The notes: a model not told the origin generated them from the sequence alone. A DNA stretch of 64,000 bases from Candidatus Aenigmatarchaeota archaeon (GCA_016213555.1 JACRAC010000011.1:8841-72840); one strand, 5' to 3'. Numbered from the stretch's first letter, positions 3,622 through 51,977 are shown. Program-made: numbers and translations.

Positions 3622-4719
3622 ATGAGAATTGCTATGCTAATAGATTTGTTTTATCCTTACCAGCTTGGTGGAGCTGAGAAGCAGTTTTATGAACTTGCTG
3701 TCAGGCTTGCTAAGAAACATGAGGTTCATGTTTACACTCTTAATATAGAAGGTTGTCCATCAGAGGAAAAAATAAATGGTATTTATGTCCATAGAATTGG
3801 ATATAGAAACTCTATTAAAAAAAGGTCTTTGTCTGCTTTAGCTACATATTTTTTGAAAACTCCTTATTTGATAAGACAGATAAGAAAATATGACATAGTA
3901 CATGCAAATCAAATATCTGCCATGTTCTGTTTTTTCAAGCCGTTTATAAAAAAGCCGTTTGTTGTAACTATACATGATCTATACTGGGATCTTTGGAAAA
4001 ACTACTATAGATTTCCTTTATACTATATTGGAAAAGCTGTAGAACTATTTTGGTCTATTCTTAGATATGACAAAATAATTACTGTATCAAAATCTTCAAA
4101 AGCCAAGTTAGAGAGGCTAGATTTTGTGAAAAAAATATCAGTATTGCCTAATGGTATAGACTTTTCCAAGATAAATAAGGTATCTGCAAAGAAAGGAAAC
4201 CATATAATATATGTTGGACGTTTGGTAAATTATAAGAATGTTGACCTGGTAATCAAGTCTATGAAAGAATTAAATAAAAAATATCCTATATTAGAGCTTA
4301 GAATAATAGGATCAGGTGAGCAGGAGACTTACTTGAAAAAACTTGTTAAAGAGTTAAAAGTAAATGTAAAATTCCTTGGATATGTTACAGAAGAAGAGAA
4401 ATTTAGGCAAATAAAATCTGCTAAAGCATTTGTCTCTATGTCTGATGTTGAAGGGTTTGGAATCTCTATGCTTGAAGCAATGGCTTGTGGTACTCCTGTT
4501 ATTGGGAAAAAACTTAAGGCATATGAAGAGTTTTGTAATACTAAAAACTCTTTACTAATAGATGGAGATGATATTGAAAAGACTCTAATAAGAGTTTTGA
4601 AAGATGAATCTTTAATGAAAAGACTTTCAATAGAAGGAATAAAAACTGCAAAGAAATTTGACTGGGATAATATTGTAATAGATCTTGAAAAAATATACAA
4701 AACTAGCTTGTTTCATTAA
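3622..4719 (+). CDS. Glycosyltransferase family 4 (GT-B, retaining)
   Basis: C-terminal EGFGISMLEAMACGTPVI (E-x7-E motif region of GT4), ~365 aa. Confidence 0.85.
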   Translation: MRIAMLIDLFYPYQLGGAEKQFYELAVRLAKKHEVHVYTLNIEGCPSEEKINGIYVHRIGYRNSIKKRSLSALATYFLKTPYLIRQIRKYDIVHANQISAMFCFFKPFIKKPFVVTIHDLYWDLWKNYYRFPLYYIGKAVELFWSILRYDKIITVSKSSKAKLERLDFVKKISVLPNGIDFSKINKVSAKKGNHIIYVGRLVNYKNVDLVIKSMKELNKKYPILELRIIGSGEQETYLKKLVKELKVNVKFLGYVTEEEKFRQIKSAKAFVSMSDVEGFGISMLEAMACGTPVIGKKLKAYEEFCNTKNSLLIDGDDIEKTLIRVLKDESLMKRLSIEGIKTAKKFDWDNIVIDLEKIYKTSLFH

Positions 4720-5812
4720 TCTTTAATTTGAAGAGTTTTACTTCTCCTCCCCATTGGTCTACAAATTCAAAATGTTCTAATCCTGCTCCGTTATAGAAAA
4801 ACATTCTTGTAAACATTGAATTCTCTAATTCTTTAGGGAAAAAGAATATTACACTAAGACTTGAATCTGGCACATATATTGTACCTTTTATTTCAGCTGA
4901 TGGGTCTTCTGATGTAACGTAACCAAATTTTGTAGGATACACAACTTTACTTATTTTTACAAACTGATTATTTTGTTGCAATAAAGCATGTAAAGTATTG
5001 TTCTCGTCATATAGTATAAACGATTGACCTTCAGATAATTGATATTCATAACCTACTGTTGATTGAGAAAATAATGGTTTTCTTCTTGTCAATTGAGCAG
5101 GGAAATAATTATATGTAGTTCCTTTTGGATCATTTTTCAAAGGATCCCATGTAGAGAAATAAGTCCACCATTGACTTTTGTACACAAGATCTGCACTTGC
5201 TATATAGTATACATCATTACATCCTTTTTTCTTATACTCCTTTAATATGTTATACGCTAATGTCTCGTTATCAGTAAAGAGGGTTATTGCAATATCTTTT
5301 ATTCTTGCTGTAGTAACTGTGTTATTATTAAAAACTCTAACTTGAACAATTCCTTTGTCATAGTTATCTAAAACTAGTCCTTCTGATGTTTCATTCGTAG
5401 GTCTAGTAAATACATCGTTCTGTCCAGCACCGTCAAAAACAACTGCTCTTTCTGCGATTCCTGTTATAAAATGTCCTGGATCCCAATAAGTAGCCACAAC
5501 TGAACATTCAGCTGTATTATTTTTAATCCAGTTAAGAGATTGCCACCAGTTATCAGTCAGGACTGTTCCTTGACTGCTAGAAATTGCATAGCTAGGTACT
5601 AGATAGAATAAAAGAATTATTACTACTGTAAAAAATCCTAATAATCCTGCAAAGAAATCATATTTATTTATTTTCTTCATTGCAAATAAGGCACCTAAAA
5701 CAACTATTGTTAAAAGAAGTCCTATTGAAAACAATACTATTTTTTCAAACTGTATTAGTATAGCTAAGCCTAACAATACTCCTATTGCAATTGATATTGT
5801 CTTATTTTTCAT
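4703..5812 (-). CDS. aglB: Oligosaccharyltransferase AglB/STT3, C-terminal part (3 TM helices + periplasmic domain with WWDYG-like motif)
   Basis: After three TM helices: NWWQSLNWIKNNT...VVATYWDPGHFITG...DGAG, a degenerate WWDYG motif; start ATG overlaps stop of the upstream ORF (ATGA). Confidence 0.6.
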   Translation of the reverse strand: MKNKTISIAIGVLLGLAILIQFEKIVLFSIGLLLTIVVLGALFAMKKINKYDFFAGLLGFFTVVIILLFYLVPSYAISSSQGTVLTDNWWQSLNWIKNNTAECSVVATYWDPGHFITGIAERAVVFDGAGQNDVFTRPTNETSEGLVLDNYDKGIVQVRVFNNNTVTTARIKDIAITLFTDNETLAYNILKEYKKKGCNDVYYIASADLVYKSQWWTYFSTWDPLKNDPKGTTYNYFPAQLTRRKPLFSQSTVGYEYQLSEGQSFILYDENNTLHALLQQNNQFVKISKVVYPTKFGYVTSEDPSAEIKGTIYVPDSSLSVIFFFPKELENSMFTRMFFYNGAGLEHFEFVDQWGGEVKLFKLKINETS

Positions 5813-7095
5813 TCTTTATCCTCTTTTTCATAAAGTGCTATATCCCAAAACTTTGCAAGTATTATACCAGAACATATACTATAAACAGCTGTTAAAAATA
5901 TATCAAATCTTACAGCTACTGCACTAGCTACTAAAAATCCTATAAACCATATTAACATAAAAAGTAATGTATCGAAGTGATGTCTTTTCTTTACGTATGA
6001 GTAAAGTAGATAGATAAAACATACTATCGTCAAAATAAATGGAGAAATAAGAAGTAATAATGCTAGCGGTATCCCGCTTATCTGTGATGCTATATCTACG
6101 CTACTCACTCTTATGGCTACGTCTTTTATACCTCCACTTTGCAACTCTGCAACTGATACATAAACATTAGGAAATTGGCTTGTTTCTGCCTTTAAACTAC
6201 CACTAGATGCTACAGAACCGACTACAGACTGGACAGGATTTGATAAAAATCCTACTCCGTAATATGGTATTGTTATTATGTAGAACACTGCTATTATCAT
6301 AATAAACGATACTACCATTACTTTGTTTTTTGAAAATACTTGTTTAATATGATTTGTATCATGTTTTTTTGTAAGTAATATATCAAATATTATTTTTAGG
6401 ACAACAAATGATGCAATTATCCACAATGCAAACCAATAACCTGTCCATGTTAGTGCAAAAAGTCCTAAGAATAGTCCTGCAATAGCTGAATATATGATGT
6501 TTTTTCTTGCAAATATCTTTTCCTTATCTAATTTCTTATACGCTACTACAAAAGATGCAATAGAAGCCATCATCATTAACATAACAATTGCATCTGAATC
6601 TGGATCTCCTCCTAAAGTTCTTGTTAGGAAAGGAATTGCAAATAATACAAATATTGCAATGAATGCACCAGCCTTTCTATTGAATAAATATTTTCCTATG
6701 AAATATGAAGGTATTGCGAGTAAAGATGTTAATAATACAGGAAACCATACCATAAACTGCCAGAGTTGCATATCTGGCATAAAGAGATGGAAGAACATGT
6801 AGGAATAGGCTCCTAAATACTCATAGAATAAAGGCCCAGAACCTATAGGTATACCGTTTGGAGCAAATCTAAGATAATCATACGATGGAAGAACGCCGTT
6901 ATTATTTATTATACTACCTACTTCTCTAGTGAAGTAAAAAGAATCTATATTCCTAAGATATGGCCAACCATGTTCATAAAACCCAAACAATCTTATGTAC
7001 ATCGACAAAGCTATAATTAATATTATTATAGCTGCGTATTTGTACTTGAAAAGCGGTTTTATAGATAATTTGAAGCTTACTTTGTCTTCTTCCAT
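5809..7095 (-). CDS. aglB: Oligosaccharyltransferase AglB/STT3, N-terminal transmembrane part
   Basis: Polytopic; EL1-like motif IDSFYFTRE (cf. eukaryotic STT3 DPYFNYR), GGDPDSDAIVML (D-x-D/NEAIAI-like), and SVAELQSGG (cf. SVSEHQ / TIXE motif). Confidence 0.7.
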   Translation of the reverse strand: MEEDKVSFKLSIKPLFKYKYAAIIILIIALSMYIRLFGFYEHGWPYLRNIDSFYFTREVGSIINNNGVLPSYDYLRFAPNGIPIGSGPLFYEYLGAYSYMFFHLFMPDMQLWQFMVWFPVLLTSLLAIPSYFIGKYLFNRKAGAFIAIFVLFAIPFLTRTLGGDPDSDAIVMLMMMASIASFVVAYKKLDKEKIFARKNIIYSAIAGLFLGLFALTWTGYWFALWIIASFVVLKIIFDILLTKKHDTNHIKQVFSKNKVMVVSFIMIIAVFYIITIPYYGVGFLSNPVQSVVGSVASSGSLKAETSQFPNVYVSVAELQSGGIKDVAIRVSSVDIASQISGIPLALLLLISPFILTIVCFIYLLYSYVKKRHHFDTLLFMLIWFIGFLVASAVAVRFDIFLTAVYSICSGIILAKFWDIALYEKEDKE

Positions 7096-7142
7096 ATACT
7101 ACCCACTTATCTTAAGAATATTCTCTGAAAGACTTTAATACG

Positions 7143-7805
7143 TTAATTAAATAACGTCTTTAGTCTAAGTTTTAAAAGAAACCATCCTACGTTTGCACCA
7201 TCTTTGATTGTGTTTATTTTTGCCTCTCCTAATCTAGGATAGTAGTCTACTGGAAACTCTACAAACTTAGTTCCTGATTTTATTACCTTTATTTTTATCT
7301 CTTCTGATAAAGGCATGCCATCATCTTCTAAAACTATCTTTTTTAATATAGATTGGTCAAAAATCCACATTCCTGTCTGAGAATCTTTTAAATCTATCCA
7401 GAATAAAATGTTTGCTAATTTTGTAAGCATCTTATTTCCTATCTCATGTGTAAAACTCATGCTGTTTTTCTTTGGTATTCTGTTGCAGGATATAAATTGC
7501 TCTTTATTTTCTTTAACTAATTTAATATAGTATCCTAATTTTTTTGTTGAATAGCTGCCATCAGCATCTATTGTAACTATGATATCTGCTTTTACTTTAT
7601 TAAATCCTGTTTTATATGCACGTCCATAACCTTTTCTTGACTCTAGTATTATTTTTGCACCTTTTTTTTTGGCTATTTCTTGAGTTTTATCTGTAGAACT
7701 ACAATCAATTATGTAAATATCATCTACATATTTTTTAACATCATCTATTACTTTTCCTATTCCTTCTTCTTCGTTTTTTGTAGGTATCAAAGCTGCTATT
7801 GTCAT
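7143..7805 (-). CDS. Dolichyl-phosphate hexose synthase-like glycosyltransferase (GT2, DPM1/AglD-like)
   Basis: AALIPTKNEEEGIGKVI...IIDCSSTDKT...TIDADGS: classic GT2 N-terminal DXD architecture; 220 aa. Confidence 0.85.
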   Translation of the reverse strand: MTIAALIPTKNEEEGIGKVIDDVKKYVDDIYIIDCSSTDKTQEIAKKKGAKIILESRKGYGRAYKTGFNKVKADIIVTIDADGSYSTKKLGYYIKLVKENKEQFISCNRIPKKNSMSFTHEIGNKMLTKLANILFWIDLKDSQTGMWIFDQSILKKIVLEDDGMPLSEEIKIKVIKSGTKFVEFPVDYYPRLGEAKINTIKDGANVGWFLLKLRLKTLFN

Positions 7806-9637
7806 TGTTTTACCTTATAGATTTTTACATATGTTTTACCATTGTTTGTATAGTTCCAGGCTTCTTCTAAATAACTGTCTAGTCCTTGATTCCATGGTTT
7901 ATTGAAGTCTCTATAATTTTCTGGACCTACTACCAGCAGATTGTATTTTTTGATTTCAGGACCTTTTATTGCAGGATCTATCCAAGTATTTAGGACAGTA
8001 AATGTTATGTTATATTTATTAAGATAATTTCTATAATCTTTAACATCTTTTACTATTATTGGATCAAAAGATCCTACAAGTTCACCGTTTTCATTAATTT
8101 GGTACTCGCTTTGTATCCAATAATAACTCCAGTAAAGATACTTTACATCGTATTTATCTAACAATTCTTTTCTTTTTGAAGAATCATTTCCGTATAGTAT
8201 TATTGCTGAGTCTGCTTCTAGTTGATCGATGTCTATAAATGGGCTATTTTGGCTACGTCTTGATACCATTACTTTTCGTCCAGTTAATCCATTAAGTGCA
8301 AAGGATAATTCTTTTGTAGACAAAAATATATCGTCAACAGATGTGTTGTTAAGAACCCATTCTCTTGTTTGTATCAAATCTTCTGATAACGGATTCTTAC
8401 CTACATTTATCCACTGATCCTTCTGGACCCTTTGATTGAAATCCATATAGTAAAATCCTGTAGTGATTAAAAGAACTATTATGACTAGAGGGAAGAAATA
8501 TTTAGTAATTTTCTTTTCTAGAAACTCTAATGATATAGTTGTTAACAGTATTGTTGAGAAAGGTATTAGAAATTCAAACGCTTTTCCTGAAGAGAAGTTT
8601 GTTTTAATCAATGGTTGTGTGATCAGATAGTGGAGTGTAATTATTACTGATATCGTTATGAACATCAAAATAAATATTTTGTTGTTGAGTTCTTGCGTTG
8701 CTATCAGGTAAATTCCTATTATGGCTAGTATAGAAATTATTATTAGATTTATAGACCCAAAATTTAACAGTGCTGCTGATAAAAATCTGTATATAGTAAC
8801 TAACTGTATATCAAATCTAGACAAATCTTCGAAAGCCCAGTTTTGGTTATCATTTAGTGTAACTCCTTTATGCACAAATATTGGATTATACCACCATAAG
8901 AGTGCTATAGAGAACGCTATTACAAGTGCTATTATCATCATTGGTAGGTATTTTTTAATGTTGGTTCTTTTTGGATAGAATTCTATTATCTTTTCTCTTA
9001 TATCTATTTTTAAAACTCTATGAAACATGAAAGCAAGAAACATAAGTGTTATAAAAGATAATGAGACAAAAAATGCTGCTCCATGGGATATTGATAAAAT
9101 TCCTGCTACTATTCCAAGTATTGTTGATGATAGTATGTTTTGCTTCTTGTAGAAGTAGTATATAGAGAAAAACATTATAGGAAATAAGAAAAGTGATGTA
9201 AATTCTGTATATTTTAAAATCGGGAATGCTGATAGAGGTAAAAAGAGTATTGTTGATAACAACGCTATATTTTTGTTATTTGTTATATAACTTAATATTA
9301 GATATAAGGAAACTATGAAAAGAATTATGCATATTTGAGAAAATAAGAATATTGCTATCATTGGTTCTAGTCCAAATGTTGATCCAAAAGACGCTACTAA
9401 ATATGAGTATACAATAAAATATCCTGGCTCAGAATTTGGTATGTTAGGTGCTACTAGTGGATTGCCTCCCTCCATTATATGGGTTACTGAGCCTAACTGA
9501 AAGTAGTAATCTCCTCCGTACAGAGGTGAAGGAAGCTGGTTTAGCTGGGATATTAAATAGCTTTGTTGGAACAAGTAAAATGCTATTATCAATACAAGTA
9601 CAATTTCTTGTTTAAATTTAAAATCCATTAAGTCCAC
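7802..9637 (-). CDS. Large polytopic membrane protein with C-terminal soluble domain; putative GT-C-fold glycosyltransferase
   Basis: ~12 predicted TM helices then ~230 aa hydrophilic domain; first loop has GGDYYFQLG resembling the STT3 EL1 D-x-YF-N motif; 4-bp overlap with the GT2 gene (operon with aglB). Confidence 0.35.
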   Translation of the reverse strand: MDLMDFKFKQEIVLVLIIAFYLFQQSYLISQLNQLPSPLYGGDYYFQLGSVTHIMEGGNPLVAPNIPNSEPGYFIVYSYLVASFGSTFGLEPMIAIFLFSQICIILFIVSLYLILSYITNNKNIALLSTILFLPLSAFPILKYTEFTSLFLFPIMFFSIYYFYKKQNILSSTILGIVAGILSISHGAAFFVSLSFITLMFLAFMFHRVLKIDIREKIIEFYPKRTNIKKYLPMMIIALVIAFSIALLWWYNPIFVHKGVTLNDNQNWAFEDLSRFDIQLVTIYRFLSAALLNFGSINLIIISILAIIGIYLIATQELNNKIFILMFITISVIITLHYLITQPLIKTNFSSGKAFEFLIPFSTILLTTISLEFLEKKITKYFFPLVIIVLLITTGFYYMDFNQRVQKDQWINVGKNPLSEDLIQTREWVLNNTSVDDIFLSTKELSFALNGLTGRKVMVSRRSQNSPFIDIDQLEADSAIILYGNDSSKRKELLDKYDVKYLYWSYYWIQSEYQINENGELVGSFDPIIVKDVKDYRNYLNKYNITFTVLNTWIDPAIKGPEIKKYNLLVVGPENYRDFNKPWNQGLDSYLEEAWNYTNNGKTYVKIYKVKQ

Positions 9638-9712
9638 ATTTTCATATGTAAGTTAATGGATTAAAATGAGTTTTTTGACGAAGATTTAAATGTTTTTACC
9701 TTTAAGATTAAA

Positions 9713-10660
9713 ATGAAGTATACTCATGTAAGAAATATCTTTATAGTTCTTTCACTTGTTATATTGGTTGCTTTTATAGTATTGATAGATCCTGTAAAAA
9801 TAGCTGGCGTTATTGTTACAGCTAACTTGTATATACTACTATTGGCTTTAGTTCTTGCAACTGTATCTCATACGTTTCTAAAGGTTTTTAAGTGGAAAGT
9901 ACTTTTAGATAATGTACCCTATAAAGACCTTCTTCCTATACAAATGGTTGGAATGACTATTAGTAACTTCACGCCTGGAAGAATTGCAGAACCTGTTAAA
10001 AATATACTGCTTAAAATAAAAAAGAATATTCCTGTATCTGAATCCCTACAGTCTGTTATATTTGAGAGAATAATAGATATAGTTGTCTTAGTTCTTATAT
10101 CATTTATAGGTATACTAGTATTTTCTGTAGGCAGTATACAAATTCTCGCATATCTAAGCATTGGAGTATTTCTAACAATTGTTTTGCTTCTTGTGTTTAT
10201 GATTTACAAAAGATCTTTCGGTATAATTATTTTTAACTTTTTTAGAAAGTTTCCAATTGCAAATCGTCTTTCAAAAGATTTTATTGAAACTTTCTATAAA
10301 AAAAGATTTTCTAAAAAGCCTTTGATAAAATGTTTTTTGATTTCTCTGATAGTTTGGTTGTTAGAAGGTGTGGTTTTTTACTTATGCATACTGTCTTTTG
10401 GTATCACCGTATCTCCTTTGATTGCAATTGGAATTGTATCTTTGGCTATATTGATAGGTAACATAAGTTTTCTACCTGGAGGTATTGGCTCTAGTGAAAT
10501 TGTGATGATATTACTTCTAACTTTAGTAGGAGTTCCTTCTGTTACTGCTGCTGCATCCACTATTTTATTTAGAATACTTACTTTTTGGTATATGGCTTTT
10601 CTTGGATTAGGGTTTTTTGTAAAAGATTTTTCTGGAGAAAAGATAGATTTATTTAAATGA
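9713..10660 (+). CDS. Flippase-like integral membrane protein (UPF0104 / lysylphosphatidylglycerol-synthase TM-region family)
   Basis: 315 aa, ~8 TM helices, family commonly adjacent to GT2 dolichyl-phosphate glycosyltransferases. Confidence 0.45.
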   Translation: MKYTHVRNIFIVLSLVILVAFIVLIDPVKIAGVIVTANLYILLLALVLATVSHTFLKVFKWKVLLDNVPYKDLLPIQMVGMTISNFTPGRIAEPVKNILLKIKKNIPVSESLQSVIFERIIDIVVLVLISFIGILVFSVGSIQILAYLSIGVFLTIVLLLVFMIYKRSFGIIIFNFFRKFPIANRLSKDFIETFYKKRFSKKPLIKCFLISLIVWLLEGVVFYLCILSFGITVSPLIAIGIVSLAILIGNISFLPGGIGSSEIVMILLLTLVGVPSVTAAASTILFRILTFWYMAFLGLGFFVKDFSGEKIDLFK

Positions 10661-50876: not shown

Positions 50877-51977
50877 ATGTTAATCAAAATAGACAATATA
50901 TCTATAGGTAATTCTAATAAATGTTTTGTTATAGCAGAAGCTGGTGTAAATCATAATGGAGATATAGAAAAAGCATACGAATTGATAGATGCTGCAGTGG
51001 ATGCTAATGCAGATGCTGTTAAATTTCAGACATTTAAGACCGAAGAAATAGCAACAATAGATGCAAAACAAGCAACTTATCAAAAAATTAACATGGGAAA
51101 AGAAGAATCCCAATATGAAATGTTAAAACGTCTTGAATTAAGTTATCAGGATTTTAAAAACTTAAAAAAGTACTGTGACAAAAAAAATATACTTTTTATG
51201 TCAGCTCCTCATTCTTGTAAAGAAGATGTAGATTTGGTTGCAGCTCTTTGCCCAGTTATAAAAGTGCCAAGTGGAGATCTGACAAACTTACCTATCTTAA
51301 AATATATGGCTGAAAAAAGAATTCCTATAATTTTGTCAACAGGAATGTCTAACATGGAGGAGATAAAAGAGGCTTTAGACATTATTACACCAATTAATAA
51401 ACAACTTATAATTCTTCATTGTACATCAAACTATCCAACTCCTTTGAATGAAGTTAATTTGAAAGCTATGAAAACAATTGAAAAAGCGTTTGGATTTCCA
51501 GTAGGTTATTCTGACCATACAATGGGTACAGAAATAACAGTTGCCTCTGTTGCAATGGGTGCATGTGTTGTAGAAAAACATTTTACATTAGATAGGAATC
51601 TTCCAGGACCTGATCATAAGGCATCTCTAGAACCAAATGAGCTAAAAAAAATGGTTAATGAAATACGTAATGTAGAAAAGAGACTAACTCAAGGCATCTC
51701 TCCAGAAAAAATATTAAAAGAACTCAATCTTTTAGATTCTATGGGAGATGGTGTCAAAAAACCCCAACTCTCTGAAATTGAGGTTATGAGAGTTGCAAGA
51801 AAGAGTTTAGTAGCTGCCGTAAATATACCTGAATACACAATAATAACAGAAAAAATGCTTGCAATAAAAAGACCTGGTACTGGATTACATCCAAGAAATT
51901 ACTGGAGTCTTATAGGTAAAAAAGCTAAAACAAACATTAAAAAGGATGAAATGCTTGATATTAAAATGATAGCATGA
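50877..51977 (+). CDS. Nonulosonic acid synthase (NeuB/LegI/PseI family) with C-terminal SAF domain
   Basis: CFVIAEAGVNHNGDIEKA...DAVKFQTF TIM-barrel NeuB signature; SAF antifreeze-like C-terminal domain; 366 aa. Confidence 0.85.
   Translation: MLIKIDNISIGNSNKCFVIAEAGVNHNGDIEKAYELIDAAVDANADAVKFQTFKTEEIATIDAKQATYQKINMGKEESQYEMLKRLELSYQDFKNLKKYCDKKNILFMSAPHSCKEDVDLVAALCPVIKVPSGDLTNLPILKYMAEKRIPIILSTGMSNMEEIKEALDIITPINKQLIILHCTSNYPTPLNEVNLKAMKTIEKAFGFPVGYSDHTMGTEITVASVAMGACVVEKHFTLDRNLPGPDHKASLEPNELKKMVNEIRNVEKRLTQGISPEKILKELNLLDSMGDGVKKPQLSEIEVMRVARKSLVAAVNIPEYTIITEKMLAIKRPGTGLHPRNYWSLIGKKAKTNIKKDEMLDIKMIA

Follow-up and report, generated by a model that had tools for sequence, protein, structure and literature searches.

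To our knowledge, the catalytic subunit of oligosaccharyltransferase (OST) is a single polypeptide in all characterised members of the STT3, AglB and PglB type and throughout the three domains of life, an observed regularity rather than a formal criterion. This regularity is not kept in a stretch of 64,000 nucleotides from a Candidatus Aenigmatarchaeota archaeon (GCA_016213555.1 JACRAC010000011.1:8841-72840), hereafter the window, where an AglB-like enzyme is encoded by two open reading frames (ORFs), and the locus raises the question of whether one enzyme is genuinely made as two chains or whether one gene has been broken, in the organism or in its assembly. The first gene, aglB-N (5809-7095, 428 aa), carries the STT3/AglB membrane domain, and the second, aglB-C (4703-5812, 369 aa), carries an equivalent of transmembrane (TM) helix 13 followed by the external, periplasmic-side domain; both lie on the minus strand, as do all features within them, both start with ATG, and their products exactly match HY831_01425 and HY831_01420, entries from a Candidatus Aenigmarchaeota metagenome-assembled genome (MAG). 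The original prediction, made from the DNA alone, had placed two ORFs at these positions, overlapping at an ATGA, and had left two alternatives, a genuinely split, translationally coupled OST or a recent frameshift. In this report, we argue, with a probability of about 0.86, for a genuine two-gene (heterodimeric) AglB OST, the activity and assembly of which are predicted.

Both ORFs proved to be halves of an STT3/AglB protein, as had been proposed, and homology directly supports this for each. aglB-N matches the Pfam family STT3 (PF02516) with E=6e-24 and 85.7 bits (cutoff 24.5) over profile positions 5-362 of 405, and it also matches TIGR04154, the archaeosortase-A-associated AglB family, over positions 3-327 with 108.5 bits. 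aglB-C gave a marginal match to TIGR04154 (positions 464-551, E=1e-3, 17.3 bits), and neither half reached the 450-bit cutoff of that family; on these scores, the two halves are homologous to the TIGR04154 subfamily but lie outside its membership. A phmmer search of the PDB sequences with the N half alone returned no match, and a family profile was needed: the N-half profile (A2) aligned to residues 3-274 and 384-449 of Archaeoglobus fulgidus AglB-L (AfAglB; E=5e-24) and to residues 20-257 and 362-431 of human STT3A. Among 30 N-half homologues, D51, D164/D166/D168, E317 and R396 are invariant. D51 lies in NIDS (residues 49-52, 6940-6951) and corresponds to the first catalytic Asp in external loop 1 (EL1), this region being aligned to 'GGNDPWYYYR' of AfAglB and 'EFDPYFNYR' of STT3A; D166 and D168 lie in DPDSD (residues 164-168, 6592-6606), which is aligned to 'NDHH' of AfAglB and 'YDNE' of STT3A. 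The two acidic motifs of the DXD type, which coordinate the metal in this family and lie in EL1 and at TM3/4, are accordingly represented by residues that are both aligned and invariant (D51 and D166/D168). R396 (5908-5910), the conserved Arg at the TM11/TM12 turn, falls within the stretch aligned to 384-449, where 'avRF' faces 'NRF' of AfAglB-L. In EL5, FPNVYVSVAELQ is invariant, including E317, and FPNVxVSxxE is invariant or nearly so among the same 30 homologues. The motif SVAELQ (residues 314-319, 6139-6156) precedes the TM10 equivalent in the structure model described below, just downstream of a low-confidence segment (residues 294-303), and EL5 aligned to no solved structure; its E317 is proposed as the TIXE/SVSE-type glutamate on the basis of motif resemblance. 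Of the motif equivalences first put forward, those of IDSFYF to DPYFNY/NDPWYY and of DPDSD to the second DXD were borne out by the profile alignments, and that of SVAELQ, which is invariant in the family, to TIXE/SVSE is a putative one based on motif resemblance. The N halves also share a conserved GEDK-like tail at their C-terminal end.

The second half is more divergent. aglB-C had no match in Pfam, and its identity is assigned because of profile-to-PDB alignment and the structure model. The C-half family profile (A1) aligns to human STT3A 465-556, a region spanning TM13 and WWDYG, with E=1e-7, pairing 'atYWDPGhfit' with 'sWWDYGYQIT'; YWDPG (residues 109-113, 5474-5488) is the equivalent of the WWDXG sequon-binding motif, as anticipated. 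This motif was present in 54/54 split loci surveyed, and its first Trp is replaced by Tyr, making it a variant rather than the canonical WW form. Among 26 C-half homologues, ATYWDPGHFI is invariant, likewise D208, K212, W215 and W216. The latter four residues belong to DLVYKSQWW (residues 208-216, 5165-5191), a DK-motif-like element whose D208xxxK212xxW215W216 pattern is helical in the model (concatenate residues 636-649) and shows DxxxK spacing as opposed to the textbook DxxK; we infer that it is equivalent to the DK motif, the DK or MI element of this family being located on an external-domain helix opposite WWDXG. The three helices expected at the start of this ORF were seen in the AlphaFold model. 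The first two (residues about 2-45, 5678-5809) are inserted between the cut site and TM13 and are missing in homologues of a one-TM type, such as P0027, and two of the three leading helices are thus lineage-variable additions. Across the C halves, the position of YWDPG falls into three classes (about 61-71, 98-130 and 164-216), corresponding to one, three or five preceding helices, counts that are approximate in that a crude hydropathy segmentation often merged neighbours. All three numbers fit the odd number that is needed if the N-terminus is cytoplasmic and the external domain lies outside, and the Lys-rich N-terminus (MKNK) and the loop AMKKINKYD would fit the same topology under the positive-inside rule. 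In one locus (L050, 2624-2766), the N half is followed by a 54-aa ORF with two predicted TM helices and then by a C half of the one-TM type; this small ORF may represent the extra hairpin, encoded on its own as a third piece, or may have arisen by chance.

Where the enzyme has been divided was read from the ends of the two profiles. The N-half profile stops at about residue 449 of AfAglB and about residue 431 of STT3A, just past the conserved Arg-Phe and the next helix, and the C-half profile starts at STT3A 465, inside TM13, and covers WWDYG; together these limits place the cut in the cytoplasmic TM12/TM13 loop. Directly in line with this position, natural fusions join exactly at the cut point, as in locus L053 (...SYHKEDKSNLNWFWFVLALL...). 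An AlphaFold2 model of the window's two proteins, concatenated in order and built from an alignment that held both kinds of halves and two natural fusions, had a mean predicted local distance difference test score (pLDDT) of 87.4 and a predicted TM-score (pTM) of 0.84, with lower confidence confined to the N-terminus, residues 294-303 of EL5 and the artificial join (about 421-430). By approximate count, twelve TM helices (TM1-TM12, with loops EL1 and EL5) come from the N half; those from the C half are 429-447 and 452-472, which are the extra ones, then 478-508 (TM13), followed by a compact mixed alpha/beta domain. In a Foldseek search of the PDB, full-length OSTs ranked first, all with probability 1.0, the best being PglB (5OGL; E=2e-18, TM-score 0.66 normalised to the target), followed by yeast and human STT3 and A. 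fulgidus AglB, with TM-scores of 0.5-0.66 against full-length PglB, STT3 and AglB chains. The concatenate is compatible with the OST fold, with its 13-TM GT-C domain and mixed alpha/beta external domain, plus two extra TM helices, and the model shows that the two halves jointly amount to one complete OST fold. The suggested partition into a catalytic TM part and a substrate-binding part holds insofar as there are two chains; there is no clean divide of that kind, the halves being TM1-12 on the one hand and TM13 with the external domain on the other.

Is the division peculiar to this genome? A recent frameshift or nonsense mutation that inactivated AglB and left a pseudogene would explain why ORFs of different frames meet beside runs of A, and AglB is established as a single chain in all characterised archaea. 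However, the best 120 homologues of each half were all half-length (305-503 aa for the N half and 286-488 aa for the C half), with identity down to about 35-45%; most were labelled Aenigmarchaeota, and many pairs occurred on one contig with adjacent locus tags. We then compared orthologous loci, as had been suggested, taking one genome per GTDB species; 63 loci were returned, almost all labelled Aenigmatarchaeota, and the junction was visible in 56. The genes were split in 54 of these 56 and fused in two (L013 and L053), so that a single continuous ORF is not the rule, and the STT3 half was directly upstream of the C half on the same strand in all 56. Among three close genomes (73-81% identity), the ratio of nonsynonymous to synonymous divergence (dN/dS), an approximate value here, was 0.10-0.17 across both halves and 0.10-0.13 for aglB-C, in direct support of purifying selection. 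A split shared by 54/56 species-level loci at 35-80% identity, dN/dS of 0.10-0.17 in both halves, invariant catalytic and binding motifs, and a second ORF with its own ATG, Shine-Dalgarno (SD)-like site and conserved N-terminus all argue against a pseudogene, and the homologous loci differ throughout and are not misassembled copies of one sequence; this explanation has a very small chance of being correct, and the recent frameshift of the original prediction can be given up in favour of its other alternative, the genuine, coupled split. Two loci in the survey carry other labels, L045 (QMSS01000037, Thermoplasmata) and L060 (JAWAMY010000001, Pacearchaeota), and both are typical split YWDPG pairs; L045 groups tightly with L044 and L039, and L060 with L047 and L043, all Aenigmatarchaeota, which suggests mis-binning or mislabelling rather than horizontal transfer.

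The junctions themselves vary from species to species. In the window, the aglB-N TGA (5811-5809) and the aglB-C ATG (5812-5810) share bases in the ATGA at 5809-5812, as the sequence confirms, and the surrounding sequence is ...tat gaa aaa gag gat aaa gaA TGA aaa aat aag..., with an A5 run on either side; in the aglB-C frame, the TAA that had been noted two codons before the ATG is present, and a TGA lies further up. The three close genomes have three different junctions, an overlap of 4 nt in the window (-4, ATGA), one of 11 nt (-11) in an 81%-identical orthologue (L064) found on 11 contigs from several samples, and no overlap (0, TAGATG) in a 76%-identical orthologue (L067). Over 50 measured split junctions, the C frame relative to the N frame was +1 in 31, +2 in 11 and 0 in 8, the frame-0 cases having an in-frame stop such as TAAATG, and 44 of the junctions had a gap of -14 to +16 nt. 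In three Aenigmatarchaeota species (L023 3325-3973, L031 2140-2691 and L057 3404-3955), a gene for an S-adenosylmethionine (SAM)-dependent methyltransferase of ~212 aa (Methyltransf_11, E=1.6e-21) is inserted between the halves; it could be a pointer to a methylated glycan. The split junctions are thus not copies of one lesion. That a homopolymer indel in sequencing or assembly split a continuous gene in this MAG might be suspected from the A5 runs and the metagenomic source, but the split recurs in independent assemblies from many studies and samples, including the 11 contigs with the 81%-identical orthologue, an in-frame stop (TAAATG) or an intervening gene in some relatives is impossible by indel error, and the C frame has both TGA and TAA immediately upstream of the ATG; we regard an error of this type as having practically no chance.

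A related possibility is that programmed ribosomal frameshifting or stop-codon read-through joins the two ORFs into one AglB chain. The tight, purine- and A-rich overlap would suit such recoding, and the two natural fusions (L013 and L053) show that a joined chain is viable. Nevertheless, the relative frame varies by species (+1, +2 and 0), stops lie within gaps that reach up to 16 nt, the halves are separated by an entire gene in three species, and in the window the TAA two codons before the ATG leaves room for only two codons, in which inspection found no X XXY YYZ slippery heptamer; what is conserved is an SD-like motif and an ATG instead of a recoding signal. Recoding is therefore highly improbable, and because of the junction diversity and the evidence for selection we regard neither a recent frameshift nor a homopolymer error nor a conserved recoding signal as tenable. 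A mode of translation that would serve two separate chains is indicated by the SD-like motif. An SD-like GAGGA is embedded in the last aglB-N codons (5819-5823), with its GAGG core (5823-5820) 7 nt upstream of the aglB-C ATG, and a purine motif of this kind was found 3-16 nt before the C-half start in 32/44 tight junctions (73%), against a background of 11.6% in N-half coding sequence (binomial p ~6e-21, with species that are not independent). This enrichment is direct support for a conserved start signal, and an SD-like site combined with near-zero spacing is the standard signature of translational coupling, which may serve to balance the two subunits. ATGA joins between long ORFs are rare in the window: when junctions between ORFs of at least 100 codons were counted over its whole length, there were three cases. 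The second, at 7802-7805, couples two unrelated genes of the aglB operon, which encode a 611-aa protein and a GT2 glycosyltransferase; the third, at 51974-51977 on the plus strand, joins two ORFs of 373 and 317 codons.

Two conserved, separately translated halves might also serve separate functions, with, for example, the N half acting alone on another acceptor and the C half being an independent surface or glycan-binding protein. The gene between the halves in three species and the variable number of N-terminal TM helices in the C half would be compatible with such a separation. On the other side, the halves stay adjacent and in unchanged order at all loci whose flanks are visible, a confident single OST fold is obtained for the concatenate, and the motifs are all invariant, the WWD sequon clamp in the C half and the DXD, EL5 Glu and Arg in the N half, which work only combined in solved OSTs; functional separation is improbable. 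Several points weigh against the heterodimeric enzyme that we prefer. The dS values among the three close genomes are >= 1, near saturation, so that dN/dS is approximate; the surveyed species are phylogenetically related, and both the locus counts and the SD p-value overstate independence. The spacing of the DK-like motif is non-canonical. Because an artificial concatenate was modelled and its alignment included two natural fusions, the inter-half packing is no independent prediction of a complex; association of the two polypeptides and activity of the pair are predictions. Finally, the genome was seen as one contig, and a second full-length AglB elsewhere is possible. Nonetheless, selection maintains the split across a large Aenigmarchaeota clade, as a clade-wide trait with rare re-fusions and not as a peculiarity of this genome.

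Our data suggest a model whereby the ancestor was a gene for a single chain that became divided at the cytoplasmic TM12/TM13 loop. aglB-N would retain TM1-12 with the predicted catalytic and lipid-linked-oligosaccharide-binding residues D51, D166/D168, E317 (EL5) and R396, and aglB-C would begin with an N-in segment whose TM helices are odd in number (three in this case, with the TM13 equivalent as the third) and continue into an external domain that bears YWDPG, the sequon-binding motif, and the DK-like helix. Both genes would be expressed from one operon with other glycosylation genes, aglB-C being translated by coupled re-initiation from the SD-like site buried in the last aglB-N codons, and the two chains would assemble in the membrane into a canonical OST fold and perform N-glycosylation. 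The pair would work like AglB, STT3 and PglB, with transfer of a lipid-linked glycan onto Asn in N-X-S/T sequons as the predicted reaction.

How far the division extends among archaea was addressed in a search of 1.84 billion cluster representatives with the C-half profile. The best ~22 clusters (E < 1e-70) were all half-length; the first fused protein appeared at E=2e-67 and was followed by many fused AglBs of 700-1100 aa. The 150 matches listed comprised 80 fused proteins, 37 apparently complete C halves and 33 fragments, and two proteins at contig ends (P0267 and P0366) are uninformative on the split. Nearly all of the 80 fused proteins have WWDPG, WWDFG or WWDYG, with YWDPG in only two, and some fused WWDPG proteins carry an Aenigmarchaeota label. 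In neighbour-joining (NJ) trees, fused WWDPG proteins form the sister group of the YWDPG clade, in which nearly all members are split; YWDPG is an invariant hallmark of the split clade, its Pro being common to the fused sisters (WWDPG). The two fused loci of the survey, L013 (2441-5029; P0388 = HYW25_02115, 816 aa) and L053 (2708-4888), are single ORFs nested inside the split clade in the NJ trees and are probably secondary re-fusions, with MAG assembly error possible too. Outside the main clade, four more distant split pairs were verified, which carry other motifs (WWDQG in L069, WWDPG in L070, WWDPG in L072 and WWDFG in L073/L074); in each of them, an STT3 N half has its end at the same place in the profile (394-406 of 411), and its overlap with the C half is 4-11 nt. 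Given this shared endpoint, use of this cut site extends past the main clade. The recurrence of the cut could reflect several fissions or one old fission followed by re-fusions, between which these trees do not distinguish; the NJ trees and a Fitch count of 14 state changes are crude, the number of events is not relied upon, and several 'split' tips that stand alone outside the main clade could be artefacts of gene calling or of frameshifts. We speculate, tentatively and with more doubt than conviction, that the TM12/TM13 loop could be a general permissive fission point of STT3-type enzymes, at which AglB was cut more than once in DPANN archaea and occasionally re-fused, that the second chain gained TM hairpins (one, three or about five helices), and that the product is a true heterodimer whose sequon-recognition subunit evolves, and is possibly expressed or exchanged, semi-independently. 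If true, this enzyme would be the simplest OST with two subunits in nature and would readily serve as a template for engineered split OSTs.

By sequence, motifs and fold, the pair appears to belong to the AglB/STT3/PglB family (GT-C, CAZy GT66), and the real departure would be a catalytic subunit made of two polypeptides. Like archaeal AglB (A. fulgidus AglB-L; PDB 3WAJ, 3WAK, 5GMY and 7E9S), it has the GT-C fold, two acidic motifs, a putative EL5 Glu, the Arg, TM13 and a WWDXG external domain, and it too sits in an N-glycosylation gene cluster (AglJ-like GT2, GT4); it differs in having two polypeptides and two extra TM helices (15 in total), YWDPG instead of WWDYG, SVAE (resembling the SVSE of eukaryotes and TACK archaea) instead of TIXE, DxxxK in its DK-like helix, and a small external domain of about 260 aa. 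Eukaryotic STT3A/STT3B and yeast Stt3 (PDB 6S7O, 6S7T and 6C26) give the best sequence match to the C half (E=1e-7) and would share an SVxE-type EL5 motif, but eukaryotic STT3 is one chain within a multi-subunit complex of unrelated accessory proteins, whereas in the window the division affects the catalytic subunit itself. Bacterial PglB (Campylobacter lari; PDB 3RCE and 5OGL) is the top structural match of the concatenate and has a similarly compact external domain, but it consists of one chain, its sequence identity is about 14%, and an MI motif takes the place of a DK-type one. The fused AglBs of sister Aenigmarchaeota (such as P0275/MCD6478156, P0260/MBN2095185 and P0388/HYW25_02115) have the same family-specific external domain with WWDPG or YWDPG, joined at the split genes' cut, but each is encoded by one ORF of 720-853 aa. 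Nanoarchaeum equitans and other DPANN archaea are reported to carry normally single genes in two pieces within a small genome, a likeness to the aglB pair, although the known examples are said to be soluble enzymes with halves that are often unlinked, whereas the aglB halves are adjacent, coupled and part of a polytopic membrane enzyme; the pair would thus add such an enzyme to the split-gene list of small-genome DPANN archaea.

The division would also indicate that TM1-12 on the one hand and TM13 with the external domain on the other are separable folding and assembly units, would offer a natural test of the docking of the sequon-binding domain onto the membrane domain, and would give glycoengineering a precedent on which to design split or modular OSTs. 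Surveys that seek full-length AglB, or Pfam STT3 alone, will mis-score these organisms, because the C half has no Pfam match and is mostly annotated as 'hypothetical'. A full-text literature search found no description of a split AglB or STT3; the main survey (Nikolayev et al. 2020) lay outside its coverage, and an earlier mention is possible.

The surroundings of the pair are rich in glycosylation genes. The minus-strand apparent operon runs from a gene for a 611-aa multi-TM protein (7802-9637), which leads it and is ATGA-coupled to the next, through the GT2 glycosyltransferase gene (7143-7805) and aglB-N to aglB-C, which is last; the 611-aa and GT2 genes keep their positions in the relatives L064 and L067, where the homologues of the former have 614 and 609 aa. 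The GT2 protein is of the AglJ or dolichyl-phosphate hexose transferase type (PF00535, E=9e-22; TIGR04182 (AglJ), E=1.5e-39, under the equivalog cutoff). In the 611-aa protein, some 12 helices or more are predicted, with a soluble part at the C-terminus; in Pfam it gave only a sub-threshold match to DUF6541 (E=2e-3), a PDB sequence search returned no match, and its single-sequence AlphaFold model (pLDDT 40) was unusable. A relationship to the STT3 N half was considered and rejected (hhalign against the N-half profile, 6% probability), and the protein may be a further membrane glycosyltransferase or a flippase.

The wider neighbourhood is ordinary chromosome, with genes including those for PolB and Cdc48. 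No other STT3-like or C-half-like gene was found in the 64-kb window by hidden Markov model (HMM) searches of six-frame ORFs, and ARAGORN found no tRNA or tmRNA genes across positions 1-64000. A scan of 4400-10000 for sigma-70 promoters and intrinsic terminators gave counts no higher than in shuffled sequence; such a scan is ill-suited to archaea and was left unused. On the plus strand, a GT4 glycosyltransferase gene (3622-4719) converges on the pair, its tail overlapping the aglB-C 3' end by 17 nt (4703-4719), and the corresponding convergent overlap in L064-L066 is 4 nt only. Divergent from the glycosylation operon, a gene at 9713-10660 (plus strand) encodes a protein with an LPG_synthase_TM or flippase-like domain (PF03706, E=2e-48); this divergent arrangement is kept in L064 and L067, and the protein is a candidate lipid-linked-glycan flippase partner.

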